A stretch of 64,000 bases of DNA from Chiloscyllium plagiosum (taxonomy: Eukaryota): the NCBI RefSeq assembly GCF_004010195.1, contig NC_057754.1, positions 6,184,583-6,248,582 on the forward strand, written 5' to 3'. Of the stretch, positions 5,908 to 60,614 are shown piece after piece. Made by a program: the position numbers and the translations under genes. Every line of letters begins with the position of its first letter. Position 1 is the first letter of the stretch. Below the pieces are notes generated by a model. That model saw nothing but the letters and a program-made list of their open reading frames with translations. It ran no database searches and was not told where the DNA came from.

Positions 5908-6082
5908 GTTAAAAATCACACAACAACAGGTTATAGTCCAACAGGTTTAATTGGATCATGATGAAGGAGCAACGCTCCGAAATCTAATGTGTTTCCAATT
6001 AAACCTGAAGGACTATAACCTGGTGTTGTGAGATTTTTAACTTTGTGCACCCCAGTCCAACATCGGCATCTCCAAATCATGT
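5908..6082 (+). mobile_element. Short Penelope-type hairpin element with hammerhead-like core at 5958-5986
   Basis: Arms GTTAAAAATCACACAAC...GGTTATAGTCC...AGGTTTAATTGGA / TCCAATTAAACCT...GGACTATAACC...GATTTTTAAC. Core ATGATGA-A-GGAGC(AAC)GCTCC-GAAA. A second partial copy is at ~6775-6895. Confidence 0.6.
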
Positions 6083-7961
6083 AAACTGAGGAGAGACAGT
6101 GATTTCTGGTTTTGGACTGTGTCTACATTCACACCGTCCAGAATACTCTGTTGTGAATATCTATCCTGTACTTTATGACAAAGCCAAGGTCTCTGACAAT
6201 GAAAACCAAAACACCCAGGTAACATCGCCTCACCTCGTAATCTGATAAAAAGACTTGTGATAAATCTGGTTGAATTTAGAATACAGTTGGAAAGCGGGAA
6301 GATTAAATCCAATCCCAAGATCCTGTGCTTAAACAAAGGAGACTACAATAGGATGAGGCAGGAGTTGGTTAATGTAGACTGGAAGCAAAGACTTTAGGGT
6401 GGGACAGTTGAAAGATAGCGGAGGAATATCAAGGAATTTTTCAAACTGCTCAGCAAAAGTATATATCAGTGAAAAGGAAGGACTGTAGGAAAAGGAGTAA
6501 TCTGCCATGGGTGGCTAAGGAAATAAGGGAGTCTATCAAATTGAAATAGAAAGCATACAAATTGGCAAAGCCCAAGGAGAAACTACGAGATTAGAAAAAA
6601 ACTTTAAAGATCAACAGAAAGCGAGATGGGATTGGGGGAGAAAAGTGATGAGCAGCTATCCCCAGGGCCAGAATAGCAGTTTACACGGCTAGAGGGGAAC
6701 CTATTGTTTGGGGAACATATGGCCTCTGTAATTGTTGAAGCACTTCACTGTTACCATAGAGATAATCCTGATCAAGTTAAAAATCACAGCACACTCCAAA
6801 AGCTTGTACTCCCAAATAAACCTGTTGGACTATAACCTGTTGTGTGATTTATAGGTTTGTCCACCCCATCCCAACACCGGCTCCTCCACATCAGAATCCT
6901 GATAAGACAGCCCCACTGAAACTGAAGCGTCTGTCAGATACTTGAGGGAGCCAGAAGGGTGTGGGGCAGGGGTGTATGTTTTAACCACGAAGTGCTAAAC
7001 TGAACTAGACTTTCTAACTGACCGTTGCCATGGAGATAATACTGAGAGATAGTCTATATTCAAAGTCCCAAACCACAAAGGTATGAGAATGGGAGCTTTA
7101 CATCGGACAGGTGGGGCGTTACCTGATGCTGCCCGGAGGTGTTCTGCATGTACACTATCCAGGTAACTGCCATGTTTCATCAATAAAGACTTAAAGAAGA
7201 CCTCAGAGTTCTGTGCCTAGTTATTTCTATCCAGTAGGATTCAGAAATATGAGTACACAGCAGTCAGTCTTCACAGTGGAGGATACGAAGAACATGCCAG
7301 TAATTGATCAGGAGACTGAGGAAGGTGAGGACCTAGAAATAACCATTATCATGAAAGAGTTAGAACTGGGCAAGCTGATGGAGCTAAAGGTAGACAAGTC
7401 TCATTGCCCTGATGGAATACATCCCAGGATACCAACAGAGTTAGTGGGAGAAATAGCAGATGCACTTAGAGTCATAGCATCCTGCAGCAGAGACAGGCCC
7501 TTTGGCCCAAACTGGCCCATGCTGACCAGAATGTCCATCCACACTAACCCCATTTCCCTGCACTTGGCCCATCTGCTCCTGATCCTTTCCTATCCATGTA
7601 TTTGTCCAAATGTCTTTTATCTGTTGTGAGTGTACCCACCTCAACCACTTCCACTGGCAACTCAGTCCATATACATACCACCCTCTGTGTAAAACAGTTG
7701 CCCCTCAGCTTCCCTTTTATTCTTTCCCCTCTAATCTTCAACTGATGCCCTCCAGTCCTGATTTCCTGGGAAAACGACTGAGTGCATTCACCTTACCCAT
7801 GCCCCTCATGGTCTTATACACTTCTAGAAAAGAACCCCCTCAGTTTCCCCTGCTCTAAACAAAAAAATCCTCGCTTGTCCAACCTCTCCCTTTTACGCAG
7901 ACCCCTGAGCCCTGGCAACACCCTTGGAAATTGTTCTGCACTTTTTACAGTTTAATAACTA

Positions 7962-8447
7962 AAACCTACATTACATTCATCACATTTCCAGTATTTCCCC
8001 ACGGTGCTGGAACCGACGTGACAACGCCAATGGATTACAATCCATGATCGAGAATGAACTCTTTTACAACAATCCCGTTTTCATAGTGTTTCCCATGGTG
8101 CAGGTATCCTTGTGGCTTTCTGGTTGCATGGTTAATTAAAGACTTGTCCTTCTACAAAGCAAAGCTGTGGCTTAATTGTTCCGGGAAACGTGCCATGATT
8201 TTTCAGACTTTCAAAAACAAATGAACTCTTTCTCCACAGTCACCATGCCAACATGGACTTGGCTGTACCTCAGTAATTTTTCCAGTCACACTGACATTTG
8301 AAATATTTGCCCATGGACAGAATACACAACTTTCCTTCCACATGAAAAAGCCAATGATATTCAGATCGGCACGGATCAAGTAACTATCAGATCTGAACAT
8401 GAAGTTCAATTTGAATTTCTCATCCACAAATCCACCCTTTCAGTACC
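7962..8447 (-). pseudogene. Decayed terminal exon of a C2H2 zinc-finger gene, truncated by a CR1 fragment
   Basis: AG acceptor before 8447. 8004-7962 reads TVGKYWKCDECNVGF (linker plus CxxC half-finger). Shares GATCTGAATATCATTGGC...TGTGGAAGGA with 22345-22477. Confidence 0.6.
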
Positions 8448-10764
8448 CTACAACTGAGAAAACAACTCACCACGTTAATACAGGATGGATCTTTATAAGA
8501 CAATTATAGTATTAAATTGTAGTTTCTTGTTCCCCAAAGTTTTAACTCTCAGTCTAACAATTTCTTTCTTCTGTGAACTGAAATCCAAACTAATCTCCTC
8601 ACTCCTTTCCTCCACACCCAGTTCTCACAGTCTCTCTCCTCTCTTTGAACTTAGTTTCTTAGCTCTTGTCTGCGGACTAAGAACCAAATCAATGAGTCTG
8701 ACTCTGAGTCCACCAGGGTGGGGGTGGGGGGTGGGGGGAGGGGGGGGGGGATGGTGGTGGTTGTTAGTGAATCCTCTGATGACAACCATCCTGCATACAC
8801 TGCTTCCTGCACACTCTGGCCAAAACCCGTCTTACTAAAATGAACCAAATTAGAATTCTAATTGCAGGCCCGTCCTTGTCGCTTTCCATAAAAACCTTGA
8901 ATCTTCACAATGGAGTTCTGATAACTTTCTGCAAAATGCTGCACCAGTGATACTCTGATCACATGTCAGGGAGCCAGGAAACGGGCCACTCCCCTGGGTC
9001 CTGCTCCCAGAGGGAGGAAGATGCCCATGACAGATTAATTCCTCACAACCACAGCCTCCTTCCCAGGCACTGTGCATACTCCCACAATTGGCTAGCACTG
9101 CGCCCATACACTGGTCTCCTCTCCTACAGCACGTGCTCCCGATAATACAGGAGCCTGGGTGATTGACAGCAGCTGCTGCACAATATATCAAAATCCCTCC
9201 AGTATGGAAACTGCCCCTTCAGCCAAACAAGTCCATAATGACCCTCCATGCAGTAACTTACACAGACCCATTTCCAGACCCTATATTTACCTCTGACTCA
9301 TGTAACTAATACTATGGGCAATTTAAAATGGCCAATTCACCTGTCCTGCCCATCTTTGGATTGGGGGGAGGAAACCGGAGCACCCGGAGGAAACCCGCTC
9401 AGACACAGGGAGAATGCACAAACTCTGGGATTGGCTGGAATCGAAACCGGGTACCTGGTGCTGTGAGGCAGCAGTGCTAACCACTGAGCCGTCTCTATAG
9501 ACGGGAAGGGGCGGGGCTGGAGAACTGGGGTAATGAGATTGTAAACAATGAATGAATGTGGAGGACACTGGGGGATGGACAGGTCAGTGAGGGAAGGATC
9601 AGTGCAGCAGCAGGAGGGGATCCTGGACAAACTGAGCAATGGGAGAGTCTGAGAGGAGAGAAACTACAGGAAGGTTCTGTTTGGAGGCTCAGGCAGGGAC
9701 AGCTGGGAGACAGTATGGCCTGGTGGCCTGGGCAGGTTTACTAATCAGCCTCTTCAAAGATGCTGTCACTCAACTCTGAGCCTGATCCTCCTAGTCCAGA
9801 GGTAAGGACACTTGCACTATTTCCTGGTGGGCAAGGGATACAGGGTCTTTATTGGTCAGAGCATTGAGTATAGGGGTTGGGGGGGGGGGGGGGTCATATT
9901 GTGGCTGTACAGGACATTGCAAAAGTTGCTGAATCAATATTCCATATGATTCTGTTCTCCTTCCTATCAGATGGATGTTCTTAAACTTTAAAGAGATCAG
10001 AAAAGAATTATAGCATGTTGCCAGGGTTGGATAGGCTGTTTTCCCTGGAGCGTCAGAGGCTGAATGGTGACCTGAAAGAGATTTTTAAAATCATGGATAC
10101 GGTAAATAGAGAAGATATTTGCCCTGGAGTGGGGGAGTGCAGAACTAGGGGACAGGGAGGGAGGGTAGGCAGACAGGGGGTGTGTGGATCGAGAGGGGTG
10201 AGACAGAAATGGCTGGGGAAAGAGGGGGGTGACGGACAGGCCGACGTGGGGGGGGACAGGCCGACAGAGGGGGGAATGGACAGAGTGGGGGAGACGGGGG
10301 GTGGGGAGCAGACAGTGCGGGGGGAGACGGGGGGAACAGAGGGGGATGATGGAGAGTTATTTTATACATATAAACTCAACCCTGCTCCTGTTTTCTCCTC
10401 CTCACCTTAATTCCCTCTGAAGGGCTCAGAGCAACTGTATAGTTCTTGGAAAGTAGAGTTTCAGGGAGATCAGGTGCTGAACGTGGCATTTGGGACACTG
10501 ACATTGAAAGGAATGTGCTGATCAATAAATAGACTCTGGTTCGATTCCACTGTCTGTGTGGTGTTTGCACATTCTCCCTGTGTGTTTGCGTGGGCTTCCT
10601 CTGGGTGCTCTTAATTTCCTCCCACAATTCCAAAGACATGCAGGTTCGCTGGATTAGCTTTGGGTAATGGCAGGTTACAGAGTCAGGGTGGAATGCTGTT
10701 CAGATGGTTGGTATGGTCTCATGGGCCGAAAGGCCTGCTTCCACACTGTGGGGATTCTGTCACT

Positions 10765-11320: not shown

Positions 11321-11505
11321 ACCAAACAAATTTGAATCTTTTTTCCAAGTTGGAAATGACAAATTCTAGAAGAGAAATTGCAAGTTTAATGGATGTGAAA
11401 ACCGAAACAACTGAAGATGCTGTTAACCAGGAAGAGAAACAGAAGTTTCTGGAAAAGCTCAGCAGGTCTAGCAGCATCTGTGAAAAGAAATTAGAGTTAA
11501 CGTAT

Positions 11506-11538
11506 CTGAGGAAGGGTGACCAGACCCGAAACCTTAAC
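11506..11538 (+). ncRNA. Degenerate minimal hammerhead motif at the centre of a hairpin element (about 11395-11590)
   Basis: CTGAGGA-A-GGGT(GACCAG)ACCC-GAAA-CCTT-AAC, with flanking arms reverse-complementary. A more decayed relative is at ~15160-15195. Confidence 0.5.
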
Positions 11539-11994
11539 TGATTTTTTTTCACAGATGTTGCAGGACCTGCTGAGCATTTCCAACAACATCTGTGCAAGTT
11601 TAAAGGGAGTTTTTTGGAGTATATACCTGACAGTAACTTCATAAAGTGTGAGTCAGACCACATCTGGAGTAATGACGGAAGTTTTGGTCCCTTTATTTAA
11701 GGAAATACATCATTTCATCAGAGGCATTTCACAGAAAATTGACTGGGATGAACCCTGGTTTGCAGGGATTATCTTTTAAGAAAAGGCTGAAGAGGTTGGG
11801 ACTCTCCTCACTGGATTTGGGAAGAATGAGAGGGGATGTCATTGTAACATGTAGGATTCTTAAGGAGTTTGACAGGGTAAATACTGAGAGGATGTTTCCC
11901 ATCATGAGGGAGGCTGGAACCAGATTCTGGGTCAGTCACGGAATCACGGGTTCTGTTTTGGATTCATCAAGTTTAAGGCAACACCGACACAGGT

Positions 11995-14468: not shown

Positions 14469-14578
14469 CCCGCCCCTCATTCACTCCGATTGGTTGAAGG
14501 ACCAACTAGCACCTCTCGCCCCCGTTCCCCCACTCTTATTGGTCTTGCGCTGACATCAATAATCCGAGGCCCATTGTG
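14469..14578. promoter_or_regulatory. GC-box plus double inverted CCAAT module, copy A (copies B 15413-15505, C 22921-23037)
   Basis: CGCCCCTCATTCACTCCGATTGG...ATTGGTC...GCTGACATCAAT...CCCATTGTG skeleton shared by three dispersed copies. Confidence 0.45.
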
Positions 14579-15894
14579 GGCTGGAGCATGCTCAGTGCTT
14601 CCTGCTTTTGCTGTTGTTCATTAGGTATGAGAGAGAGAGGGCTCATCCCTGTTTCTCCTGATGTCAGACAATAACAACAACTACCTGCATTGCATGGAGC
14701 CTTTCACATTGACAAATCTCCTAAAATGCTTCACGAATGATGGAAACGTTGATTAAAGAGAACGATTTTTAGATACATCTTTAAGGCGGACAGAGGAGGT
14801 TCGGGAGGATATTCCAAAGGTTTGTGTCCTCGGCAGCTCCAATCGTGAAGTGATATAGGTGGACAACAGCTTACAATGGAGACATTTAGTGGCTAACCAT
14901 AGGTTAACAACCTCATGTCGTAGCCCCCTACCCCACACACCAGTCCTTGTTCTCACAGCCTGCCATTACACACTACCTATGGTTAGTCACTAACAGTCTC
15001 CATTAACAACTAGTCACCCTCCCCCAGCCAGATCGTTATCCTTTATGCAACTGTTCCTCTCACTCTATCCCCACCTATCCTTTACTCCTTTTATCCTCCC
15101 CCCACCCCACACTATCTTCTGCACATAAACTGACTTTTTTTTTCTGAGTAACATCTGTTCTGTGGAAGGGACACCGGATCTTAAACTTTAACTCTGATTT
15201 CTCTTCACAGATACTGCCAGACCTGCTGAGCTTTTCCAGAACCTCCTGGTTGTTGTTTCTGATTTACAGCATCTGCAGTTCTTTTGGTTCTAATTTACCG
15301 GGAGTTTGTAATTCATGTCCAACCGCCTCTGTCCCAGTCTCTGCTGTCTCTCCCAACCCCAAACAGTGACATTGCACCTGCACAGCTCATGAACAGGTGT
15401 TGTCTTGCTGGCCACACCCCTCATTCAATCCCATTGGCTGCAGGACCACACAGACTCTCCTCCCATTGGTCTGGAGCTGCCGTCAATCAGTCGGGCCCTA
15501 TTGTGATGAGAGTGGAGGGCTAATCTCTCTCTCTGCCCTGAGATGAGCTTCATCATTCACAGTGAATGGGGCAGTATCACAGACCACAGGGCCTGGGGGC
15601 TATTCAGCCCATTGGGGCTGTACTCTCTCTCTCTGGAGATACTGCAAATCTGTCCCAAGTCCCCTTCCATGTGCCCATCGCCCCCCAAATCTTTCCTTAA
15701 AAAGTAAAATTCCAAGTCTGTTTCAGAATCTGTGTTGTTCAGCGTTAACAATTCCTCTCTCTCTCTGCAAATTCAAGACCTTGGAACCAAATCTGCACCA
15801 AATCAAAATCACTGCTTCACCTTCTCAGCTCCAAGGATAATTATCTGTGCTTCAGCTAGCTCTCCACAAAATAGAGGAATGCATCTTAATGTAT

Positions 15895-18169: not shown

Positions 18170-18605
18170 AGGACATCCCAGAAAGGCCTACTTCAAGGAC
18201 CGTAATTTTCCTCTGACTTGATCAACAATGCCCTCCAACACATAGCCTCCACTTCCCGCACCTCCGCCTTTACCCCACCCCTCCAGCCACAATAAAGAAT
18301 ATAACCCTGCGGTCTTCACCTTCCACCCCACGAATCTCCAAATACAGCGCATTCACATCTGTTATTTCTGCTACCTAAAGCCACCACCAGAGACATATTT
18401 CCCTCCGAAACCCTATCTGTGTTCCGCAGAGACCATTCCCTCTGCACCTCCATGTTCGGTTCACACCGTCCCACCAACCCATGCTCCACACCCTTGACCC
18501 TCCCTTGCCGCCACGGGAAATGTAAAACGTGCGGCCACACCTCCCTCTGACCTCTGTCCAAGACCTCAAAAGGATCTTATCGCATCAGGCAGAGATTTGT
18601 CTGCA
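18170..18605 (+). mobile_element. Penelope-like element ORF fragment (region between RT and GIY-YIG)
   Basis: Degenerate VFTFHPTNLQIQRI...TTRDIFP...FRRDHSL...PCRHGKCKTCGHTSL motifs, including the CxxC linker. Related pieces at ~21800-22030, 23500-23940, 32610-32850 and 14780-15150. Confidence 0.65.
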
Positions 18606-18901
18606 CATCCCAAAACCTCATATACTGCATCTGGACACTATGGGAAATTTAACATGGTTCATCCAACTAACCTACACATCTTTGGACTGTGGGAGCAAAC
18701 TGGAACACCCGAAGGAAACCCTCACACACACTGGGGAGAACGTGCCAACTCCAACACAGAGTCGCCAGAGGCTGGAATCAAACCCAGGTCTCTGGTGCTG
18801 AGGAAGCAGCGCTAACCACTAAGCCACAATACTGTGGGATCTTTGGTGCTGATGTGCTGCCCCACTGATACCTCGGTCACTCACCCTGCCTCATTTCCTA
18901 A

Positions 18902-23037: not shown

Positions 23038-25379
23038 AGGTCAGTGATGGGATCCTCCCCCTGTCTGAATCAAACCCAGAAGGTGTATGGATGGTGTCAA
23101 TCAGGAACAACAAGCAGAAGGTGCTGGGAAAGCTCAGCAGGTCTGGCAGCATCTGGGAACAGAAATCTGTCCAGTGGCCATTCCTCAGAACCGATGGGAG
23201 CTGGGAAAATTAGAATCCTGACAGTGTGGAAACAGGCCATTCGGCCCAAACGTTCCCCAGCGTCCCTCCGAAGGGTATCCCACCCAGACCCATTCCCCTA
23301 CCCTATGACTGTATATTTCTCCTGACTAATGCACCTAACCTACACATCCCTGAACATTATGGGAAATTTAGCTTGGCCAATTCAACTAACCTGCAGATCT
23401 TTGTACTGCAGGAGATAGGTGTTAAAGTGTAAATAATAGGCAGGAACAGAACCCAAAGAGAGACCAGAACATTTGGAAAGACAAAGGAGTTGATTACGAT
23501 CTGGCTAAGGGGGTGCATAGCTGTTCATGGAGGGGACAGGAACCTGTGTCTGGCAGCATCTTAGTGGAGGTGGCGGAAATGGCGACTGATGATCTCCGTT
23601 CTGCTGCAAAAACAGACCCCGAGCTTCCAGCTGCCTGCCACTTTAACACACGAGCCTGTTCCCTGGCCAACATCTCTGTCTCATACTTACTGCAGTGTTC
23701 CAGTGACGCCAGAACATACCAAATGGCCAGGTATTTCAAGAACTGCAATTTCCCATCCCATGAGGTCAATACCATCCAATGTATCTCCTCCACTTCCTAC
23801 ACCTCTGCCTTTGAAACCCACACCTACAACTGCACAAGGATAGAACTCCCCCCCCCGCCCCACCAAGTCCTTACCTTCCACCCAGATACAACACATCATC
23901 CTCTGCCATTTACACCATCTACAATCAGACCTCACCACCAGATTCTTAAGGGGTTTGACAGAATAAATACTGATGTGTCGGAGGGTAAATACTGAGAGGG
24001 GAGTCTGAAACCAGATTCTGAGCCATTCACAGAATCAAGGGTTCTGCTTTGGATTCGTGAAGTTTAAGGTAACACCGACACGGGTAAGGGGTTTCAGTAG
24101 CAATGGAGCTGGGGTGAAGAGAAGATAAACAACGGTTTCGAGATTGAAATTCCTGGTGTTTGAGATTGTGTAGATGTCTAATCAGAAGGTCAGCTTCGCG
24201 TCAGATATAACAGCAGTATTATGAAGAGTCCAGTTCTGCTGCATAGTTCCCAGTGAGAGGGAGAGCTCAGCAGTTAGGGAAAGGAATTTGTAAGGCAACG
24301 GGTTTAACCATTACAATGTTTCATTGGATAAAACTGCACTTAATCGAGTAGTGGGAATGTGGTAATCAGTTTGATAACAGAGTAAGAGTAACAGTGGAGT
24401 AATGGAGAGGGATGATGGAGAGGGAGAGCTGGGCATCGTCAGTGTACATGCTAAACCCAACATGGTACTTTTGCACAATGTCACCTCCTGGCAGTATGTA
24501 GGTGAGACACAGGAAGGGCCATGGATAGATCCATGAGGGACACCAAATGCAAGGAATTCAAAAAGGAAAGGGAGAGTGGAGATGGAGTAGGATTTTCCTA
24601 CAACTGTGAGGTCAAATGTCAGTTTTTCACAGAATGGGAGAAAAGGACATAACCAAAAAAGACAGAACAAGGAACAATGTCTGTGAATCGGTGAGGGGGA
24701 CTGATGAGGAGGAGGAGAAAAGAGAGTTGGAAAGTCTATGGTTTAGTGAGCTTAGGGTAAAGGGTCAAGATGAGCTCTGACAAGGCTTACCATGAGATGA
24801 GATTGGAGATGGATGTAGTTTTGGACAAAAACCGGGAACACCACGTGAGGCAGTTTGGCTCAGTGGGCTAGTGGGAGGGTGGGAGGGAGGGAGGGAGGGA
24901 GGGAGGGAGGGAAGCAGCAGATCGGATTATCTCAGTCTTAGTGACAGAGAAACTCCATGTGCTCCAAACTCTTGTTGGTGGAGAGAAGGATGGAGGACAC
25001 AGGATGACGGACAGTGTTTCACAAAGAAACAAAACTTGGGTACGTGATATTTAAAGTGATTGAACAAAACTAATATATTTAAATTTTATCCAACATATTA
25101 AAACAAACGACTGAAGTCCTGGTTCAAATCCCATCTTGGCACCTGGTGGAATCTTAATTCAAGAAAAACTAACTGGAATTAGGAATCTCCTGATCTCCAT
25201 GGAACCATTGCCAATGGCGGAAAATCCCTGTCAACCTGACAGTGGCCCAGCAAGCTACTCACTGTATTAATAACTGCAAAGTCTCAACAAAGGAATAAAC
25301 CTGGATCGACCACTTGGCATCTAAGAAGGCACCAGAAAATACAACCACAGAATGAGCCCTCTCGATGGTGCAATGTCCT

Positions 25380-27135
25380 CCAACTAACATTTGGATTTTC
25401 TTACCAAAATGTGCAGAGCTGTCTCACAGGCCAATCAAGGAACAGCCTGACATAGTCATACTCATGAAAACAGCCCTTACAGACAATGACCAGACACCAC
25501 CATCACCATCCCAAGATATTGAGATTGTGGTGATGGAAAAGCACAACAGGTCAGGCAGCATCCGAGGAGCAGGAGAATCGATGTTTGGAGCCTAAGCCCT
25601 TCATCAGCCTGCCCTGCTATGCTTTTCCAGCACCAGACTCTTGACTCTGATCTCCAGCATCTGCAGTCTTCACTTTCTCCTGAAATCTCTGGATATGTCC
25701 TGTCCCACCGGCAGGACAGACCAGGCAGAGGTGGTGGCACAGTGGTGTACAGACAGGGAGGATATGCCCTGGGAGTACTCAGCATTGGCTCCGGAGACCA
25801 GGATGTCTCATGACTCCTGCTGATTACCACGTACCATCCTCCCTTGGCTGATGGATCACTTCTCCTTCATGTTGAACAACTTTTGGAGGAAGCACGGAGG
25901 CAATAAAATGGTGTCAAACGTACAGGATTTCAATGTCCACAATCGACACTAGCTCTGGAACAGAATTACTGACGAAGCTGGCCAGGTCCTAAAGAAGAAA
26001 GTTGCTCAACTTAGTCTGCAGCGGGTGGTGAGGGAACCAAAAAGAGTGTAAAACATACTTTATCTCATTGTTATGAATTGACCAGCTGCAGATACATCTG
26101 TCCATGACAGTATTGGCAAGAGTGACCGTCACACATTCCTTTTGGAGACAAAGTCTTGCCTTAAAGTTGAGAAAAACCTCCATTGTGTTGAGTGGCACTA
26201 TCACCGTTCTAAATGGGACAGACTTTGAAGAGATGTCGGATCTCAAACTGTGTATCTCTGATCAACAGCAGCAGAACTGTACTCCAGCACAATCTGTAAT
26301 CTCATGTGTTTGTAAATCCCGCTCTCACACATCACAATGGACAGTAAAGGAGGGCATGCCATGAGCAACACCAGGCAGACTTAAAAATGAGGTGCCAACC
26401 TGGTGAAGCTATCAAACAGAACTACCTGCACATCAAACAGCATCAGCAGCAAGCAACAGAGCTCAGTGATCCTACATCCAATGGAACAGACCGGAGCTCT
26501 GCAGTTCTGCCACACCGAGCTGTGAACGGTGATGGACAATTAAACAACTCACTGGAGGAAGCATCACAAATATCCCCACCCTTACTGATGGAGGGGTCTC
26601 ACACATCCATGCACCAGATAAGACAACAACATTTGCAGCAATCTTCAGCCAGAAGTGCAAAGTGGGATGATCCATCTTAGCCTTCTCCGGTGGTTTCTAC
26701 CATCACAGATGTGAGTTTTAAGCCAGTTCGATTCAGTTTGAACAACATCAAGAAATGGTAAAATGCAAAGGCTATGGGCTCTGTCAACATTCTGGCAATA
26801 AAACTGATAGCTTGTGCTTCAGAACATGCCACCCACCAAGCCGAGTACCACTCCAGCACTGGCATCTACCGACAATGTGGAACTTTGCCCAGGGATGTTC
26901 AACACAAAAACACAGGGCAATCCAACCCAGGCAATTTCCCTCTATCAGTCCACACTCGATCAGCAGTAAAGTGATGGAAAATGTCATCTACAGGGCTACC
27001 AAGCAGCAGCTCTCAGCAACAGCCAGCTGAGCGACACTCATTTTAGGCTCCACCAGCGCCACTCAGCTCCCGATTGTGTTACCGCCCTGATTCACAATCT
27101 GGCAACCAGCTGTATCCCAGAGGCGAGGTGAGGGT
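25380..27135 (+). mobile_element. Decayed non-LTR retrotransposon ORF2 (APE-RT), a family distinct from the CR1 copies above
   Basis: KEQPDIVILMKT, GYVLSHRQDRPGRGGGTVVY, DFNVH-like, and PISPHSISSKVME (YRPISL-like). A related minus-strand RT fragment lies at ~36900-37110 and 43190-43395. Confidence 0.7.
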
Positions 27136-31009: not shown

Positions 31010-32550
31010 CTCATGTGTTGTGATATGGACTGTCCCTACAATATCACCACTAACTTTCCCAAGTTCCCAAGTATTCATGTCTTTCTCCACGGTAATCACA
31101 GAGGAGAAATATTCATTGAGGACCTCACGCTTCTCTTATGGTTCCACACATACGTGTCCACTTTGGCCTTTGAGGGATCCTATTTTAACTCTAGTTATTG
31201 TGTTTCCTTTATTATACTTAAAGTGCGTTTTTGGATTCATCCTAATCATCTCAACCAAAGCTCTTTCATTATCCCTTTTCGCCCTCCTGATTTCCATAGT
31301 CAGTAAACTCCTGTATCCCTTATATACCTCCAGAGATTCCCTTGATCCCAGCTTCCTGCACCTGAACCACGCCTCAACCTTTTTACCTGTCAAAGCTTAA
31401 ATATCTCTTGTCACCCAGGGTCCGCCAATCCTGCCAATCTTGCCCTTTATCCTCACAGGAACAGATAGTCCTTGAACTCTAGCTGTCTCACTTTTAAAGG
31501 CCTCCCATTTGGCAGACGTCCCTTTGCCTGCAAACAGGCTACTCTAATAAACGGTTCCTGAAGAAGGGCTCATGCCAGAAACATCGATTCTCCTGCTCAT
31601 TGGATGCTGCCTGACCTGCAATGCTTTTCCAGCAACACATTTTCTACTCTAATAAACCTCTGCAAGCTCCCATCTAATTAAATCAACATTCACCTTGCCC
31701 CAATCTAGAACTTGAACTTGTGGACCAGTTTTGTCCCTCTCCATAACTATTTGAAAATTAATAGACCGATGGTCACTCGTTCCCAAAGAACTCCCCCACT
31801 GTCACCTCAGTCACTTGTTATGTCCTGTTTCCCAGTAGTTATTCGAGTTTTGCCCCTTCCCGAGTAGGGCCCTCTACATAACTGTTTGAGGAAACTTTCC
31901 TGGTGCACTTACTGCATTCCACGCCATCAAATTCCTTAATGCTCTGGAACTCTCAGTTTGTTACAAAAATTAAAATCCCATATTATGACAACACAATTGC
32001 TCCTGCATGTCTCCCCTCTCGCTGCATATGTGTTACTCTAATTCACGTTGACTATTTTGGGGCCTATAGTACAACCCCTGTAACATCGCCATCCCCTTCT
32101 TACTTCTCATCTCGATCCACAAAGCCTCACTGAACGATCTTTCAGTTATTTTATCTTTGATCACTGCTGTGATACTTACCTGAATCAAAAATGCAACTCC
32201 TCCTCCCCTCCTTCCAACATCCCTGTCCCGCCTAAAACATCTGTACCCTGGTACATTAAGCTGCCAGTCCTGACTCTCCCTCAGCCATTTTTCTGTTATG
32301 GCTATAATATCCCAGTCCCACGTACCAATCCACGCCCTGAGTTTATTTGTATTACCTGTCAGCCACTTTGCATTGAAATAGATGCAATTTAATCTAACAG
32401 GCATTCCTTGCTCCCTATCATGTGCCAGCCTGACCTGTGTCTTCAACTTACTATTTCTGATTGCTGTATCTCCTTCCAGCCTTGCACTTGCCCCCCTGGT
32501 CTTCAGACTACCACTCCCTGCCAATATAGTTTAAACCCTTCCTTGTAGCA
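31010..32550 (-). mobile_element. CR1 ORF2 N-terminal (APE endonuclease) fragment; duplicated at 37930-38835
   Basis: ORF 32033-32524: LNCIYFNAK...WDIIAITEKWL...PGYRCFRRDR...GGGVA...EALWIEM...GLYYRP. Confidence 0.85.
31553..31643 (+). mobile_element. 91-bp insertion of the same hammerhead-bearing family, with 14-bp TSD, inside a CR1
   Basis: CTACTCTAATAAAC at 31539-31552 and 31644-31657; insert begins GGTTCCTGAAGAAGGGCTCATGCCAGAAACATCG. Further family members at ~3114-3255, 25520-25680, 32850-32960, 37849-37930 and 46315-46440. Confidence 0.75.
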
Positions 32551-38500: not shown

Positions 38501-41500
38501 ACATCCCTGTCCCGCCTAAAACATCTGTACCCTGGTACATTAAGCTGCCAGTCCTGACTCTCCCTCAGCCATTTTTCTGTTATGGCTATAATATCCCAGT
38601 CCCACGTACCAATCCACGCCCTGAGTTTATTTGTATTACCTGTCAGCCACTTTGCATTGAAATAGATGCAATTTAATCTAACAGGCATTCCTTGCTCCCT
38701 ATCATGTGCCAGCCTGACCTGTGTCTTCAACTTACTATTTCTGATTGCTGTATCTCCTTCCAGCCTTGCACTTGCCCCCCTGGTCTTCAGACTACCACTC
38801 CCTGCCAATATAGTTTAAACCCTTCCTTGTAGCACTAGCAAAACTTGCCACCAAGATACTGGTCTCCTCCCCAGTGCATGTGGGGAGGAGACCACACGGT
38901 ATCAATGTCAACATCACCAGTTTCCTCATCTCCCCTCCCCCACCTTATCCCAGATCCAACTCTCCAACTCGCCACCACCCCCTTGAACTGTACAACCTGA
39001 CCATCTTCCTTCCCACGTATCTGATCCACCTTCCGCTCTGACCTATCGCTATCACCACCCACCTTCATCTAACTATCACCTTCTAAGTATCCTTCCCCCA
39101 GCCACACCTCCTCCCATTTATCTCTCAGCCCCCTTGTCTGAAATGTCCCAAACCCTGCTCCTCAGATGCTGCCAGATCGACTGTGGTTTGCCAGCACCAT
39201 ATTTTTTGACTGTGATCTCCAGCATCTGCAGTCCTCACTTTCTCCTGCAGAAGGATTTGGACAGGTTAGGAGAGTGGATAAAGAACTGGGAGACGGAGTA
39301 CAGTGTCGGAAAATGTGAGGTAATGCACTTTGGTAGGAAGTCGAGAGGCATGGGCTATTTTCAAAATGGGGAGTAAAATTAGAAATCTGAAGTGCAAAGA
39401 GATTTGGGATTTCTAGTCCAGGAGTTTCTAAAGGTAATCTTGCAGGTTGTCAGTAGTTAGAAAGACAAACACAATGATGGCATTTATTTCAAGAGGGCTT
39501 GAATATAAAAGCAGGGATGTACTTTGGAAGCTGTATAAGGCTCTGGTCAGACTACATTTGGTGTATTGTGCACAGTTTTGGGCCCCATATCTCAGAAAGG
39601 ATGTAGTGGCCCTGGAGGATGTTCGGAGGAGATTCACGAGAGTAGTCCCAGAAATGAAAAGCTTAACGTATGAGAAACATTTGAGAACTCTGAATCAATA
39701 TTTGATGGAGTTTAGAAGGATGTGGGGGGTATGTAATTGAAGCTTACAGAATATTGAATGACGTGGACAGAGTGGATGTTGAGAAGATGTTTCTATTAAT
39801 AGGAGAGACTAGGACCCGAGGGGGCAGCGTAAAGGGAAGATCTTTTAAATCAGAGATAAGGAGAAACTTCTTCAGCCAGGGAATGGTGAATCTGTGGAAT
39901 TCACTGCCAGAGAAGGCTGTAGAGGCCAGGTTATTGAGAATATTTAAGATAGGTAAGTGCTTGATTGTCAAGGGAATCAAGGGTTATGGGAAGGAAGTGG
40001 GAGAATGGGGTTGAGAAGCCTCACAGCCATGATCAAATAGAAGAGCAGACTCAATGGGCTGAATGGCCAAATATCTGTTCCTATGTCCTCTGGTCTTTTG
40101 GTTAATATTGGTTCTCCTCATTCCTCATTATATATACGTCCTTGAATCTGGCCTTCATATGGTTTCTAAAGAGAAACTTTCCAATTCTGATGACTGGGCA
40201 ATAACATTATCCCTCCCTCCAGTCTCAGGAGTAATTTCCCCCAATTCTCTCTGTTTCTGTCTCCTCCCCAATGTTACAATCACGTAGTAATTGAAGTCCA
40301 ATAAATGGCACTTAATCAGAGTTCATTGCAATCTATAACATCAGCAGCTGACCCCCACTTGCCCTCTCTGATATTCGAATAACAATCTGACTTGTATTTG
40401 TCATGTACAAGTCTCTGTTAACATATACATACAGTTTGTCTGTTATGACCCATATAGTCTTAAGCACATTTTCTCGTCAGATTATGGACTATAAACGTTC
40501 TCTCAACATGAAAATTACTGATCAGTAGTTGCAGGCTGTATGTTTCCATTTATAAACGGATAAATCTATTAATGTTCCAACAATCCTTTGGCATCAATCC
40601 CATATCCAAGTCTGATTGAATCAATCCACCATCTCCAACATTTCTTCCATTCAGTCCCCCCCCCGAATGTGTACATTTTAAACGTTATTTTGAACTTTAA
40701 TAATATCAGTATTGAATTGAAAGGGGTTAACTGCAATTATTTGGTCAGCGACTGTGATTAATGTCAAACTCCAGTGGATTCTAATTATCCCACAGGAGTG
40801 TGTTCATCGTTTAATAATAAATGGGCTCCATTTAATATGTTATCCCATAGCATGAGAGGGAGCATCACCGACAGCACTAACAGGGATCAGCAGCTTCAGA
40901 GAGAAGGGAAGGAAAGATCAGATTCTTACAACAATAGACTGGAATGTTCCAGCAATGGATCAGAATCTGAGAACATTAGACGGGAATGTTCCAGCAATGG
41001 ACAGGAGTTTATCTGAGGGTCTTGACTGGCTTTCTCAGCCTTGGATATCATTAGCATCGCGATTCCAGGATATCCTTTGGATTATTCAAGGTGGTTACTC
41101 TCCCAGCCTCGCTACAGTTAGTGTTCCCAGTAAGTCATTGAATTTTTGCTAATGATATGTAAGATTTGGAAAAGTGGAAATCAATGTTTTAGGTTCCAAT
41201 CAAAAATTCCTTTCCTTGTAAGTTCTATAAAGCAAATTATTATTTAAAAGTTATTCACTGATATGGGTGGAGGACCCAGACTGTTCTCAAACTTCATCAT
41301 CCTGCACAGATTTTCATTTCCATATCCTCCCCACCCACTAATCCTGTCCAGGACCACCATTATGACGTCACAGTCTCCGCCTCCGCCTCAGTGCAACTGC
41401 TGAATAAACCATTGTTTGTGCCTTTGTTAATTCCGGATATAGCTGTTTAATGTCCCTTCTAATCATGCGTCCATTGCAAAATAATTGCACTTGGGATGCA

Positions 41501-43925
41501 TAAATTGATCTCTGCACAGAATCTGTCAGATGGGAAGACAGTGTATGGAGCTCCAGTAATTGATTCACAATCTACTGCCATAGAATAATAATCCGTTGAT
41601 ATCTCATGAAGGAAATTGATATAATTAAAATGGAACGATTATCATTTGTGAGACAATTCCACCTGCTTGCCTCATGTCTTTTAGAGAAGACAATGTGCCA
41701 TTCTTCCCTGATCAGGTCTCCGTGTGACTGCAAACCCACAGCAATGTTTTTGACTCTTTACTGTCCTGTGGAACAGCTGAACCAGTCACTCAGTTCAAGA
41801 TAGGCATGACATGCTAGCCTGACCAGGGCTGCACACATCCCGTGAGGGAAGAACAAAAGGAAACATAGCTCTCTTCCTCTGCCTGTTTCCCATATTCCTA
41901 CAGCGTATTCTATCTATTTGCAGTTATTCACAAGAGTCATATTCATCTCCGTCTATGGTGTTGGCTTTATTGCTGTTGATGTACAGACGTAAGGAACTTG
42001 TAAAATCCGCATCAGTCGCAGAGCAGAGAAAAGGAATGTCTTTTTACGCCACAGGACAGAAACAGAGACGACTACGAGTGGGAAAAGAATTATTGTGATC
42101 AAGCCTGAGACTGTTGTCGAGGAGGTATTTGGAGTATTGTGGACAGGCTGTCACTCCTTTATAAGGAATCATCTCCTCGCCACAGAGAGTGTGCAATGGA
42201 GTTTCACCAGACTAATTCCTGGGATGGTGGTACCATGAAGAGTGAGTGAAGGTAAATCTGTAGCGCGGTGAGGGAATATGACGTGATTGCATTGAACCTT
42301 GAGGGGTATGGACAATCACTCATTATGTTCTAAACAGACACTAAGAATGAGATAAATTCCGTGATTTGTTTTTTTTTACTCGGGTTACATGATTCTCAAT
42401 AGTTTAAATGCCTCTGAAAATACTTCCCCCACTTCACCCCCACTCCCCATGTCGATTGAGAGAGTGTTTGAGACTTTTGAATAAACTCTCCCCACATTAA
42501 TATAGTGCATCTGATGGATGATCCTGCACTGAACGTCACGTTATCCACAATCCCGACAGCAGCCAAAATACCATCATTCTAAAAGAGTTAACTATTGCCA
42601 CCAGCTTCTGACCCCTATGGAGAACATGGGAATGTCTCCTCGGAGATGGAAAATGCCTCCTTGAGACTTGACACAAAACATTTGTCTTCCCTCCTCACTG
42701 CTAGCAAACCACGTTAAAGTGTCACGTGTCCCACAAACAATGGAACCATGATTAACTTCATGGATCCTTCTATCAGTGCAGTATCTGCTTCATTGGTTTG
42801 CCATGATGGAGCATCAATGACATACTCCTGTTCTGTATCAGCCCTTAAGGGGCTGAATGACCTCATCCTGGTCCCATGGAACAGGTTCAAGTGTCTGATT
42901 GGACTCTGCACGTTTCTGTTTAACAATTAGATGCACTGACCAGACTGCTTCTCTTCCTGTGGAAGAGGCAGAAGGATTGAATGGGCAGTCACTCTTCCTG
43001 CTCAGTAATTTCAGTCATGACTTCCACATATCCGTGTGCAACCAGCTTTAGATGCAGAATGAGCTCCTCTTTTCATTGTGGAAATGTGCAGTGTCTGGCG
43101 GCTCTGTTACATGAATGTTACCGACACTTTAACAGCACAGGCCTGAATGGTGTCCAGGTCTCGCTGCACATGGACACAGACCAGTTAAGGAGCTGACAGG
43201 GGACAACATGTTCTGAACGTTGTGTGATCTTCAGTGACTATCCCAATTTCTGATCTTATGGTGGGGGAAAGACATTGATGAAGCAGCTGGAGATGTTTGT
43301 GACAAGGAAGCTATCCTGAAGATCTCCTGCAGAGATGTCCTAGGACTGAAAGGATTGATGTCCACAAACCACGAATATCTTCCGTTGTGCTATGGATGAC
43401 CACAACCACAGGAGATATTGTGGCTGATACATGTTAAATTTAATTTAGTCAGCGTTTGTTGATACCATCCTGATTCAACTCCTGCCTTGATATCAGGGTC
43501 TGTCACTCTTAGCTGGACTCCTGAGTTCACCTCATTTGAACATATCAATAGGTTATTGTGTCTGTGTGGGAAGTGTTTTCTTCTCACAAACGGTAGTGAA
43601 TGCCAAGAACGATCTGGGCTAGAGAGTTCAGGGAGCTATATCACTGAATGTACTTACAGAGGAGATAGATTGCTTTTTGACCTCTATCATTGAGTTGAGG
43701 TTTGTGAATAATTGGGAATTGAATGGAGTTGATGCCAACAGTGGATCATCCATGATCGTATACAATGGCAAGGCAGGATTGACCGGACGAATGATCTCAT
43801 CCTGTTCCTTGTGTTCTCATCTCCTGTCACTGGAAAGTTAATGGATGTAATTTTCTTGAATGTTCTGTCTTTGAATGTTGCAATCAGAGATAGCAAAGTA
43901 TTTTGTGTATCATCTCTGAGTGTTG
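31565..43925 (+). repeat. ~6.1 kb direct tandem duplication (31565-37642 vs 37849-43925) across a 206-N gap
   Basis: The same ORF set recurs at an offset of ~6284; copies differ by scattered SNPs and two ~9-bp indels. Confidence 0.95.
32961..33810 (+). mobile_element. CR1 RT C-terminus and 3' end; duplicated at 39245-40095
   Basis: LQKDLDRLGEW, KCEVMHFG, LYKALVRLHLVYCAQFWAP, RRNFFSQGMVNLWNSLP. Confidence 0.85.
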
Positions 43926-43948
43926 TTTGTGGGCTGTATTCACAGTGA

Positions 43949-44163
43949 GTTGAAAAATGTGATGCTGGAAAAACACCGCAAGCCAGGCAGCATCCGAGGA
44001 GCAGGAGAATCGACGTTTCGGGCATAAGCCCTTCTTCCTGAAGAAGGGCTTATGCCCAAAACGTCGATTCTCCTGCTCCTCGGATGCTGCCTGGCTTGCT
44101 GTGTTTTTCCAGCACCACATGTTTCAACTCTGGTTTCCAGCATCTGCAGTCCTCACTTCCTTT
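43949..44163. mobile_element. Penelope-type terminal-repeat insertion forming a ~90-bp-arm hairpin, with 14-bp TSD
   Basis: TGTATTCACAGTGA at 43935-43948 and 44164-44177. Arms 43947-44037 and 44040-44130 are near-perfect inverted repeats. Centre reads CTGAAGAAGGGCTTATGCCC(A)AAACGTCGA. Confidence 0.75.
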
Positions 44164-46162: not shown

Positions 46163-47669
46163 ATCAACACATCTTATTTTTTAAATTTATTCAGTAGATT
46201 TGAATCGTGTATAGTTCAAAAGGATTTATCATCCCATACCTAAACTGATAATCCTTCGTATCAAAAGGCCTTCGAGGAACGTGTTGACAGAGAGCAGAAT
46301 AGTCATGTCTTGGGCACATTCCTGATGAACGGCTTATGCCAAAAACATTGACTTTCCTGCTCCTCGGATGCTGCCTGACCTGCTGTGCCTTTCCAGTGCC
46401 ACAGTTTTCGACTCTGACCTCCAGCATCTGCAGTCTCCCTGTCCAGATGCAGTAAAACATTCCTACAATTATAACGTGATACCTTTTCCCAGAAACAACA
46501 TCAACCCAAACCACATGCTGAATTTGCAAAATAACTTCATGGGGTAGAGGCTGCAGTTGGCCATTCAGCTGCACCATTCAGAATGCCCATGGCTGATCCG
46601 TCTCCTGTCTGTTCCCAATAAACATTGACTCTCCTGTGCAGCAAAGATCAGTCGATCTCAGCCTTGAATATCTTCAATAACCGAGTCTTCACTGCTCCCT
46701 GAGGATGAGGACATGACAGAGGGCACAACACTAAAGGGAAAGGGACATCCTTCTTTCATTGCAGGACACGTTATTTTAAAACTGTGTTAATCTAACATTA
46801 AATTGCTACCTCTTTTGAAACATAAGGACAGAATAATTCGGCTTAGACATAAATCATTCAGCCCTCTAAACGTGTGCAACATTACCACTGACTGTTTCCA
46901 ATCAAATATGTATTAAACTCTTTCTCTGCTCCTGTCCCAGGAAGAGAATACCAAATAGCACAACACCACACGAGCATTAAAATAAGGAGCAGAATTAGGC
47001 TATTCGGCCNNNNNNNNNNNNNNNNNNNNNNNNNNNNNNNNNNNNNNNNNNNNNNNNNNNNNNNNNNNNNNNNNNNNNNNNNNNNNNNNNNNNNNNNNNN
47101 NNNNNNNNNNNNNNNNNNNNNNNNNNNNNNNNNNNNNNNNNNNNNNNNNNNNNNNNNNNNNNNNNNNNNNNNNNNNNNNNNNNNNNNNNNNNNNNNNNNN
47201 NNNNNNNNNNNNNNNNNNNNNNNNNNNNNNNNNNNNNNNNNNNNNNNNNNNNNNNNNNNNNNNNNNNNNNNNNNNNNNNNNNNNNNNNNNNNNNNNNNNN
47301 NNNNNNNNNNNNNNNNNNNNNNNNNNNNNNNNNNNNNNNNNNNNNNNNNNNNNNNNNNNNNNNNNNNNNNNNNNNNNNNNNNNNNNNNNNNNNNNNNNNN
47401 NNNNNNNNNNNNNNNNNNNNNNNNNNNNNNNNNNNNNNNNNNNNNNNNNNNNNNNNNNNNNNNNNNNNNNNNNNNNNNNNNNNNNNNNNNNNNNNNNNNN
47501 NNNNNNNNNCGACCAGAATTCAATGCAACACTCTGAAGTTTGGCCTAATCAAAGTCTTACACAACTGCAGCATGACATCCTGACTCTTGTACTCAATTCC
47601 CCGAACAGTAAAGGCAAGCGTGCCATATGCCTTTTTTACCACCTTATCTACTTGCATTGCCATGAATTT

Positions 47670-51360: not shown

Positions 51361-51386
51361 GCCCCGGTGAAGATGTGCTGCCTGAC

Positions 51387-51825
51387 CTGAACGGCCGTCT
51401 CTCTGGAAGTCGACATGGCACCACTCCCCATCGTTGACCTTTTTGTTGGTGGCGCGGATCTTGATGGCCCCCGAGCCCATGTCCAGGAGCAGGAACAGGA
51501 ACCCGTCCAACAGCTCCATGGCAAAGTAATCCACCTTCTGGAGCCGCTCGGCACGCGTCTCCTTCTGGTGTTGCCTCTTGCCGTGGCTGAACAGGAGCAG
51601 ACCATTGGGTTCCGTGGTACAGAAATCAAAGGAGACCGAGCCCGTCTTCTTGGTATTCCACTTGGGGAGGGCGATGTACGCTTCGGGGGCTTCAAAGGTC
51701 ACTGGGTCCAGGGCAGCCACGTTCTCACATCGGAACACCAGGTCCCCGTGCACCTTCATCTTGGAGTCCCCCTCCTTGGCCAGGCGTGACAGCTCCAGCT
51801 TAAAGTCATTGTTCTTGTAAACCAC
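51387..51825 (-). CDS. NRXN2: Alpha-neurexin internal coding exon (end of LNS2 and most of LNS3 laminin-G domain), 439 bp, best match neurexin-2
   Basis: Translates [48 protein letters not shown]...[10 protein letters not shown]...[17 protein letters not shown](G). Acceptor ctaacctgcctctccattcctttcAG precedes 51825 and donor GTCAGG follows 51387. [28 protein letters not shown] and GEWCH are, from recalled human sequences, NRXN2-type rather than NRXN1/3-type. Confidence 0.93.
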
Positions 51826-51857
51826 CTGAAAGGAATGGAGAGGCAGGTTAGCCCATA

Positions 51858-52650: not shown

Positions 52651-52894
52651 GATTTGCGTTGAAATACAGACTAAAGCTCCCTCGATTCTTTCGGGAAGTC
52701 GAAAACAACTGAGCTGAGGTGCTGAATGGACATCAAGTCGAAGGTGAATTCATGCAACGAAACAGAACTGTGCTGAATCAAAGTAACGCCGTCTGGATCG
52801 CCATTATCCGAAGCACTGAACAGCTGCCCCTGCGGTGGGAGCTGAGCGCCCAGGGTCAACAGGAGGTTGCACGTGACGTCTCTGTGATACTCAC

Positions 52895-53056
52895 GTCCTT
52901 CAGGCACCCCATGAAGTTGTTGCTGACGGGTGAACCAGGCAGGTCTGCTGTACTCGGGCTCCCCCCGATGTAGAAGAAGTCATCGGAACCCAACATGGTG
53001 TAGTCCTCCTGCGTGTAACCTGTGGTCGTCAAGATCCCATCCACTGAGATGGTCAC
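52895..53056 (-). CDS. NRXN2: Alpha-neurexin coding exon immediately after splice site 2 (LNS2), 162 bp / 54 aa
   Basis: Translates [54 protein letters not shown]. Acceptor ...cacctgggcAG, donor GTGAGT, phase 0; splices in frame onto the 51825 exon (CLKD|VVYKNN). Confidence 0.95.
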
Positions 53057-54271
53057 CTGCCCAGGTGGGCCGTGGGAGAGGTGGGGTGAGGGGTGTTGGA
53101 AGAAGGGAGGGGGAACGAAACGAAGGAAGAAAAGATGGGAATACAATCCGTTACCGATGGCCTCAGTTACGTCGACAGGTCTGCCTGACAAGGGTGTGGG
53201 TTGGGTGGGGGAAGGGGGGCATTATTGCTGAGGGAAGGGGTTGGGGAGAGGGCTGATGTTTTCCATTTTCATGTCTGATTTACACCCCTCGGTGAGGGGG
53301 ACATTAATGTTTCACCTTGTTTGGAGGGGGGTGGGCATCAACAGAGGAGAGGGAAAGGCGGGAACTGATGGTTTGAAGTCCTTTGGCTATCCCCCACAAT
53401 GTCGGCCATTTTGTTCTCCCAGATGTTTGGGGCGAAACTGGTCAGCTAGGAGGGCCGAGACTCAACAGCCCAGAGGCTGCTGGGACAACCGGCCTATCAA
53501 CCCCCTTCAACATCTTCGACTCCTTCCCTTCCTCGGCAGCAAGGCTGGCTTCATAGTCTGACTGACTGACCTCCTCACGCTACAAGTCACACTAAAAACA
53601 ACACCGACATTTGAGTACCCCGCCCCAAACCATGCCTCACCCTGGTTGCGAAGGGTATTGCGGCTCTGGCCGATCCCGACTGGTTCCCCCTCGCCCTCAG
53701 AACTGGTCAGACTTTGAACACGGTGTGAACCCACTCTGCTTTCTCTCAACCTTCGCCATGCAAGTTGGGGGGGGCGACGTGGAGCAGGTGGTGGAGTAAC
53801 TGAGCTATAGCAGCTCTGACACCGACCCCAACCCCCACAAAGTAATGCCCCAGGAGGACGCAGGTTCAAATCCCACCGTGGCCACGCCTTGGTGTCAGCG
53901 GTAGGCCATTACCGGTTGGTTGCCAAAACCGTGGCTTTTAAGTGAAGGGACCCGGCCGTCCCTCCCTGGTCTGGAGTCCATGTGACTCCAAACCCAGTGC
54001 AACGCGGCCACCACCACTCCCCCCACCTTCTGAGATGGCACAGGCAAGCCCCTCGGGTTCAAGGGACCGGGGCGAACAGACATTGGCTCAGCTGGCGTTG
54101 CCCAGATGTGGCTGGAGCATTGTAAGAGAAAGAACAGATTTTTGCATCACCTCAGAGCGCGTGGCCTGTCCTCATCTGCGTGCCACTCTCCATGATCCTG
54201 CCCCGCACCCCCCACCTCCCTCAATATAACTCCGCAGGTCTCCCCCACCGGTCTAAGACTCCTCCCCGCTG

Positions 54272-58900: not shown

Positions 58901-59145
58901 CCATTGAATATCAAGGGGGAGGTGGTTAGATTCAGTGATTGTAACACCATTGAATGTCAAGGGGCGGTGGTTAGATTCAGTGATGGTAACTCCATTGAAT
59001 GTTCTGGGGTGTTGGTTAGATTCAGTGATGGTAACACCATTGAATGACAAGGGGGTGTTGGTTAGATTTAGTGATGATAACACCATTGAATGTCAAGGGG
59101 GTGATGGTTAGATTTAGTGATGATAACACCATTGAATATCAAAAG
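55945..59145. repeat. 45/46-bp minisatellite, about 70 copies
   Basis: Consensus GATGGTTAGATTCAGTGATGGTAACACCATTGAATGTCAAGGGG(G)T/C. Confidence 0.97.
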
Positions 59146-60399: not shown

Positions 60400-60577
60400 T
60401 GGGATGCTTGGGAGTGGAATGCCTCTGAATCTGGGCAAAGGCGGGGGAAATTGGGAGAATGGTGATGGGAGTTTTGCAGGATACTGGGTGGGAGGAGGTG
60501 TGGTCCAGGTAGCTGTGCGAGTTTGTGGGCTCACGGTAAATGTCCGCCTGGAGATGGAAATGGAGAGCTCAAGAACT
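60400..60577 (-). mobile_element. Penelope-like RT C-terminal fragment adjacent to the hammerhead repeat
   Basis: Minus strand reads approximately FLELSISISRRT...KPTNSHSYLDHTSSHPVSCKTPI...RGIPLPS, typical of the Penelope RT thumb region. Confidence 0.6.
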
Positions 60578-60584
60578 GGGAGTG

Positions 60585-60614
60585 CTGAAGAAGGGTCACA
60601 CCCGAAACGTCACC
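60585..60614 (+). ncRNA. Minimal hammerhead ribozyme motif in a Penelope-type terminal repeat (best-preserved copy)
   Basis: CTGAAGA-A-GGGT(CAC)ACCC-GAAA-CGTC-ACC: conserved core boxes, 4-bp stem II, palindromic ACGT helix III, GUC triplet. Stem I pairing is weak in this copy. Confidence 0.6.

Follow-up and report, generated by a model that had tools for sequence, protein, structure and literature searches.

Minimal hammerhead ribozymes (min-HHRs) are found in the pseudo-long terminal repeats (pLTRs) of metazoan Penelope-like elements (PLEs), where they consist of CUGANGA and an extra base, a helix II closed by G-C, GAAA, a palindrome without helix III and a NUH triplet, and where a 2014 survey reported several covarying families in the same genome, and mostly dispersed single motifs and opposite-strand pairs derived from truncated PLEs (Cervera and de la Pena, PMC4209133). 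Endonuclease-positive PLEs insert as a pLTR with an adjacent inverted, 5'-truncated copy, a tail of 30–40 bp and a target duplication of 8–10 bp, and insertions with one tailed and one tailless arm have been described (PMC8557442; PMC3846280). In vitro, the protein of the Anolis carolinensis PLE known as PAc copies uncut RNA by nicking and extending both target strands, with two internal start sites that delimit the tail (Frangieh et al. 2024, PMC11167929). Non-LTR retrozymes are non-coding, derive from pLTRs and carry a type I hammerhead, and their arrays are tandem and contain two or more intact ribozymes (Li et al. bioRxiv 2026). Here we analyse hammerhead-bearing insertions in a 64,000-nucleotide stretch of the shark Chiloscyllium plagiosum (NC_057754.1, positions 6,184,583 to 6,248,582; the window), which are very probably dead, 5'-truncated end-pieces of PLEs carrying a min-HHR, probably of the Neptune type, and which most likely represent a known kind of arrangement already described in other animals and not a new system.

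A preliminary description of the window had reported a recurring CTGAnGA-stem-loop-GAAA pattern, and the described sequences were verified at all eight places cited. When we used a descriptor requiring CUGANGA, an optional extra base, a helix II of at least four Watson-Crick pairs and GAAA, two perfect matches were found in the window (11506 and 60585) compared to a mean of 0.025 and a maximum of 1 in 40 dinucleotide shuffles, and five when up to one core mismatch was allowed (the same two plus 5958, 44038 and 19091) compared to a mean of 0.65 and a maximum of 3, so that the motif is considered real. The matches at 19091 and 7316 are members of no family and were rejected as chance. In both perfect matches helix II is closed by G10.1-C11.1 within the CUGANGA(H)/GAAA core, and the core fits the published min-HHR consensus of a U-rich stretch, NNN, CUGANGAH, a G-C-closed helix II, GAAAN, palindrome and NUH (PMC4209133 supplement). 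The palindrome 15.2–16.2, with no helix III, is followed by NUH as ACGU-C at 44038, 44037(-) and 60585, and palindrome and NUH are also seen as ACGU-U at 11503(-) and with AGCU at 6788; the palindromic ACGT and GUC reported to follow the better copies are intact together at 60585. A search of Rfam, in contrast, returned no match to a hammerhead family at E-values up to 1, and the microRNA matches which it did return can be attributed to the palindromes.

The window contains 13 units with 19 arms in 54,944 unique non-N bases, or one unit per 4.2 kb (Table 1; unit borders were set by eye and a duplicated 6,088-bp block was counted once). The elements had been estimated at one per 5–6 kb; the present count includes further arms (15160(+), 23188(-), ~1508(-), ~6788(+), 3203(-), 44037(-) and the core-deleted 32854(+)) and leaves out one duplicate, as the element at 37849 listed as a copy in its own right is the same insertion as 31558, lying inside the 98.8% identical duplication. 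The units are 90–220 bp long, as had been described. Each arm is made up of the hammerhead plus about 90 nt (short) or 120–135 nt that include a tail of 30–40 nt (long), with the ends falling at two preferred points at approximately +86 to +94 and +121 to +135 from C3 (as estimated from local alignments). Six of the 13 units are two-armed, with the arms head-to-head and both 3' ends toward the flanks, and every one of the six combines a short with a long arm and has the tail on one arm only; the likeness between the arms is 94.6% in the 43947 unit.

Direct repeats flanking the units provide further evidence of insertion, with scores of at least 8 for 7/13 units compared to 2.7% of 1,500 random intervals, and of at least 11 for 3/13 units compared to none of the 1,500. 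The duplicated flanks are 9–17 nt long and include perfect 14-nt repeats at the 31555 and 43947 units. Head-to-head arms, a one-sided tail, an overlap at the junction and target duplications are shared with the canonical endonuclease-positive PLE units, Neptune among them, and a C-x4-CxxC linker in the coding debris described below would be a further resemblance; the shark units differ in their reduced size, in duplications of up to 14–17 nt, and in having 5' ends crowded at the upstream edge of the hammerhead. PAc likewise has a tail downstream of the hammerhead that is delimited by two 3' end points, and it makes use of both strands, but it belongs to the Poseidon clade and was tested in vitro, whereas the shark units are known here from sequence alone (PMC11167929).

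We also note a stem of 7–9 bp between body and tail, which in 4/9 long arms is at a level reached by no more than 7 of 300 tail shuffles and is weak in the other five. In two of the families defined below (A and C) this is a 9-bp stem (44081–44089 with 44138–44146) whose loop holds the short-arm end, and a stem occupies the equivalent place in family B (the 6005–6013 region with 6054–6062), where it is built of unrelated letters and is seen across copies, when two are combined. By analogy with the stem-loop of the Anolis element, which lies near the start sites (PMC11167929), it may be a protein-binding signal.

Self-comparison and profile searches placed the four helix II types in three repeat lineages, with GGGC/GCCC in family A, GGAGC/GCTCC in family B, GGGT/ACCC with a long loop in family C, and the single 60585 copy as variant D. 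The downstream body is common to A, C and D, while the family B sequence is unrelated. The third pair of helix II is G-C in A, C and D and A-U in B; the fourth is C-G in A, G-C in B and U-A in the other two; and GAAA is followed by the palindrome AGCU in B but by ACGU in A, C and D. These matched changes are consistent with covariation but come from only three or four lineages, and the proposed four or more families with a covarying stem II correspond to three lineages. Helix I has two pairs in family A and three in family C (in the copy at 15160), and does not pair at 60585 and 5958, possibly because of truncation of the 5' arm there; compared to PLE min-HHRs, helix II is short (4–5 bp) and helix I has 2–3 bp where 2–6 bp have been published (PMC4209133). 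With the core as the anchor for counting pairs, none of the nine correctly registered arms (row A3203m was mis-registered and left out) was a complete ribozyme, in agreement with the earlier remark that most copies carry core mutations, and 60585 was the only one in which core, helix II, ACGU and UH are all intact, helix I being missing. The folding energies of whole arms were unremarkable (z −1.9 to +1.5 for 10 arms).

We extended the comparison of family A to four public runs (DNA and RNA) aligned to 44024–44263 at 80% likeness. Matching contigs, all of them within 44035–44158, numbered 51,739 for organism A (a DNA run) and 65,190 for organism C, and though contig counts are not copy numbers and the two were measured differently, this seems far above the 4,000–9,000 motifs of coelacanth and Xenopus (PMC4209133). 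No matches to the family A DNA pattern were found in metagenome contigs or viral contigs. The family A majority core is intact: G predominates at 44058 (75% and 66%; RNA 71%), which restores GAAA/G12, and within CUGANGA no position but N7 is listed with variation above 10%; the remaining core changes, at CpG sites, are C-to-T and G-to-A (6–29%). G12 was off consensus in 25–34% of family A depth, a share biased upward as reads had to resemble a reference carrying A there, and it departs at least as often as other CpG sites, which argues for neutral decay. In a poly(A) single-cell run 3,114 of 12,955,460 records aligned, in both directions and nearly all from other copies, and no position in this one run, including the predicted NUH site that had been suggested for a check, was the beginning or end of many molecules, which is a weak test of cleavage; a second RNA run (X22) contributed no reads, and a listing of RNA data sets carrying 43900–46900 was empty. 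The Anolis element, copied from uncut RNA, likewise shows no RNA-seq ends at the cut site (PMC11167929). No shark is among the species found in the consulted sections of the 2014 survey (PMC4209133), and a literature search, with most subscription titles and all of Repbase and Dfam outside it, returned no paper on shark PLE hammerheads. Our results extend the known motif to a lineage unlisted in that survey, in which it is very abundant, and amount to annotation and not new biology.

The link to PLEs, and to Neptune in particular, comes from three stretches of open reading frame (ORF) debris. At 32608–32960 a PHGIN motif, which by eye matches the C-terminus of Neptune1_Ap (PMC8557442 supplement), is joined to a family A body, and this is the one direct junction between what looks like a PLE endonuclease end and a unit. 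The parts of the 18186–18635 piece follow the Neptune order when compared by eye with the Neptune rows of the same supplement, but the piece is not physically joined to any hammerhead; it is interrupted at ~18635 by another short repeat. At 23588–23890 the endonuclease and thumb parts are in swapped order and without a hammerhead, and the histidine motifs of the endonuclease (23588–23713) again match Neptune1_Ap by eye (PMC8557442 supplement). Together with the fit to the min-HHR consensus, the tail, the inverted arm and the target duplications, this supports the proposal that the units are ribozyme-containing Penelope termini.

A number of observations weigh against this explanation. Among 292 stop-free frames (150 + 142; a further 86 of 55–62 aa, and a few that overlap the elements, were left out), Pfam matches above the cut-off were limited to laminin G and one endonuclease of the type found in long interspersed elements (LINEs), so that the ORF debris went unrecognised, and a full-length PLE bearing this hammerhead was not obtained, protein searches having returned three gene-model fragments of the whale shark and nothing else. 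The link to Neptune therefore consists of motifs matched by eye and depends on one direct junction whose own hammerhead is deleted, and families B and C have no direct ORF link in the window. No target duplication was detected in 6/13 units and a match at 46319 is doubtful. Even the source element may cleave poorly, as the majority helix I of family A is weak, having two pairs and then a U-U mismatch. Finally, the 5' ends lie closer before CUGA than random truncation predicts, which is not accounted for: in 8/10 arms holding CUGA they are within 8 nt upstream of it, with the start of the 60585 arm unplaceable and the remaining arm extending ~245 nt upstream. Candidates for this crowding are a transcript start at that place or an enzyme stop.

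Other searches with the debris add little. The three whale-shark gene models are the sole relatives of one ORF fragment of the window, and in each of these (P0002–P0004) a PLE endonuclease piece is fused to unrelated sequence, such as YEATS2 in P0002; the fusions are probably gene-prediction artefacts, and a search with P0002 returned YEATS2 proteins because it is such a chimeric model. P0001 was rejected as a relative, its match being one of low complexity and due to chance. The ESM Atlas gave no usable match to the ORF debris, and scans for loci related to alignment A4 found none in metagenomes and one weak 19-residue viral match.

We suggest that the insertions might have formed as follows. 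A PLE endonuclease would nick both target strands some 9–17 nt apart, as the PLE literature leads us to infer, and each nicked end would prime reverse transcription on uncut element RNA, from a proximal internal start site to give the short arm or from a distal one to give the tail. Both complementary DNAs (cDNAs) would end prematurely, in many cases at the hammerhead's 5' edge, and would be joined by microhomology of a few bases (3 nt at 44035–44037), after which gap filling would produce the target duplication. Ribozyme cleavage would take place only as a dimer, through the ACGU or AGCU pairing of two copies in tandem transcripts of full-length elements, and the dispersed copies would be passengers decaying by CpG mutation. 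Dimer cleavage of hammerheads has reportedly been studied by Lunse et al. A more specific and tentative proposal, which we consider rather less likely to be right than wrong by some distance, is that the uncut hammerhead has at its upstream edge either an RNA 5' end or a hard stop of the reverse transcriptase, and that a protein dimer primes both target ends asymmetrically, guided by the body–tail stem; the fixed asymmetry of one proximal and one distal start in 6/6 pairs lies behind this suggestion. If true, the hammerhead would mark the template boundary instead of cutting it, and shark insertions, in their hundreds of thousands, would offer a dataset for the unsolved mechanism of PLE integration.

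The crowded 5' ends could also be taken to indicate a non-autonomous element resembling a short interspersed element (SINE), in which a ~130-nt RNA headed by the hammerhead, and having its own start just upstream of CUGA, would be mobilised in trans by a PLE protein. The loose ends of public reads before 44035 point the same way, as they agree at only 0.34–0.45 and most copies thus share no long upstream sequence, and the family A majority bases at 44033–44037, before CUGA, resemble what we take to be the polymerase II initiator. It should be noted that PLE pLTRs can mobilise DNA in trans (PMC3846280). Nevertheless, part of the pile-up of loose ends at 44035 is imposed by the reference, which continues from that point as the inverted arm; nine arms have starts scattered downstream, and one reaches 245 nt upstream into the ORF end; and the upstream bases common to copies amount to 8 nt in family C and 3–4 in family A, which means that there is no single start. 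No pile-up of RNA starts was listed, and we regard this explanation as possible but on balance improbable.

An unlikely account of the two-armed units is that the inverted arm arose when a single cDNA or antisense template primed itself or folded back, and not by priming from both target ends. Palindromes at inverted junctions have led to this proposal for rotifer PLEs (PMC3846280), and the near-palindrome at the 44035–44042 junction and the likeness between the arms of the 43947 unit would agree with it. However, the short arms end at the fixed proximal point in all families, abutting the target duplication, which is better fitted by a second start site (PMC11167929), and the short arms at 25519–25607 and 3117–3203 hold sequence 5' of the long-arm start which simple fold-back could not supply.

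It is very improbable that the units are monomers of non-LTR retrozymes, the tandem repeats of which would self-cleave, circularise and reinsert (these were reportedly described by Cervera and de la Pena in 2020). Head-to-tail joints (44164 back to 44035) do occur in public contigs, but are few (1 contig of X2 and 2 contigs of X19), and retrozymes derived from pLTRs are reported in one chondrichthyan (bioRxiv 10.64898/2026.07.22.740005). Against this, there is no tandem unit in the window, none of the 19 arms starts within 2 nt of the predicted cut, and the units have two fixed end points of the PLE type, head-to-head pairs and target duplications. The suggestion in the preliminary description that these might be non-autonomous retrozyme-like elements is not supported, because retrozymes are defined as units in tandem with cleavage at their boundaries (Li et al. 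bioRxiv 2026) while the shark units are dispersed, inverted and broken, and bear the marks of PLE integration.

Finally, we give hardly any credence to domesticated intronic ribozymes cutting or regulating the pre-mRNA of the neurexin gene in which the copies probably lie as intronic sequence, for although such domesticated hammerheads exist in amniotes (PMC6155905), no registered arm is complete, the best (60585) is antisense to the host gene and without helix I, and G12 is no better kept than other CpG sites; 7/9 units with CUGANGA are antisense to the host gene, a sample too small to be used for strand bias. Read as truncated PLE end-pieces, these compact and clearly flanked insertions lend themselves to testing, across the genome, two-ended priming, the two start sites and the cause of starts just upstream of an uncut ribozyme, and as the role of PLE hammerheads is still described as open in PMC8557442, the value of the two-armed insertions is as material.

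Table 1. Hammerhead-bearing units, their flanking repeats and other features of the window (flank matches are given as identical/compared positions).
Feature	Position	Strand	Remarks
Family C long arm with tail	1384..1508	-	Helix II remnant and GAAA kept, CUGANGA missing
Family A short arm	3117..3203	-	5' part of core lost at junction
Family A long arm (3' part and tail)	3196..3256	+	Head-to-head with 3117..3203 arm
Flanks of 3117-3256 unit	3097-3113 / 3258-3274		14/17, duplication-like
Family B short inverted arm	5907..5955	-	No core
Family B long arm	5956..6080	+	Hammerhead 5958, C3 and position 15.2 mutated
Flanks of 5907-6080 unit	5895-5908 / 6082-6095		12/14
Family B unit	6774..6893	+	~13-nt inverted short-arm end, then long arm beginning inside helix II
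Flanks of 6774-6893 unit	6764-6772 / 6895-6903		9/9
Family C long arm with tail	11396..11503	-	Begins ~5 nt before predicted cut site
Family C short arm	11505..11593	+	Core and helix II perfect at 11506, palindrome broken
Flanks of 11396-11593 unit	11379-11389 / 11593-11603		11/11
Family C long arm	15152..15292	+	Core decayed at 15160, helix I 3 bp
Family C long arm	23072..23196	-	CUGAGGA at 23188, half of GAAA deleted
Family A short arm with core	25519..25607	-	G12 mutated
Family A long arm (3' part and tail)	25607..25682	+	Head-to-head with 25519..25607; target duplication not found
Family A short arm, single	31555..31650	+	Two extra G bases at 5' junction; flanks 31539-31552 / 31644-31657 (14/14)
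Longer 5'-truncated copy	32608..32960	+	PHGIN followed by ~240 nt rich in pyrimidines, a hammerhead with deleted core at 32854, and the body and tail of family A
Family A short arm	43947..44037	-	Helix II, GAAA, ACGU and C17 intact; C3-U4 lost at junction
Family A long arm with tail	44035..44163	+	G12 mutated; overlaps inverted arm by 3 nt
Flanks of 43947-44163 unit	43935-43948 / 44164-44177		14/14
Family A long arm	46317..46436	+	Core decayed
Variant D short arm	60585..60661	+	Core, helix II, ACGU and GUC intact; no helix I
Neptune-like PLE ORF piece, frameshifted	18186..18635	+	Reverse transcriptase thumb region, C-x4-CxxC linker, endonuclease start
PLE ORF debris, rearranged	23588..23890	+	Endonuclease piece 23588-23713 joined to reverse transcriptase thumb piece
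Second copy of 6.1-kb duplication	37849..43925	+	Duplicates of 31555 and 32608 units, uncounted
Host exon, neurexin-alpha laminin-G region	51382..51828	-	E 1e-92 to neurexin-1-alpha, residues 382-530
Host exon, laminin-G domain piece	52883..53062	-	Pfam laminin G

Apart from the two neurexin exons, no further exon of this gene was found in 51 kb downstream using short motifs, and the rest of the window is for this reason likely to be intron. The 6,088-bp block is present twice with 98.8% identity (31565–37642 and 37849–43925) on either side of a 206-base N gap, and is likely to be an assembly duplication of two haplotypes. Within it, the LINE-type endonuclease/exonuclease/phosphatase domain lies at 32036–32530 (-), and the PLE copy at 32608 has apparently inserted into this LINE. 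A satellite of ~70 copies of a 46-bp unit occupies 55947–59142, and arrays of a 70-bp unit are found at 51857–52651 with a switch of strand at ~52185. Another abundant short repeat family, which we presume to be a shark SINE, is present at 2527–2745, 5169–5371, 9189–9496, 13916–14161, 18625–18827, 47670–48165 and 54275–54656, with internal 53-bp tandem units at 47809–48022 and 54386–54523.

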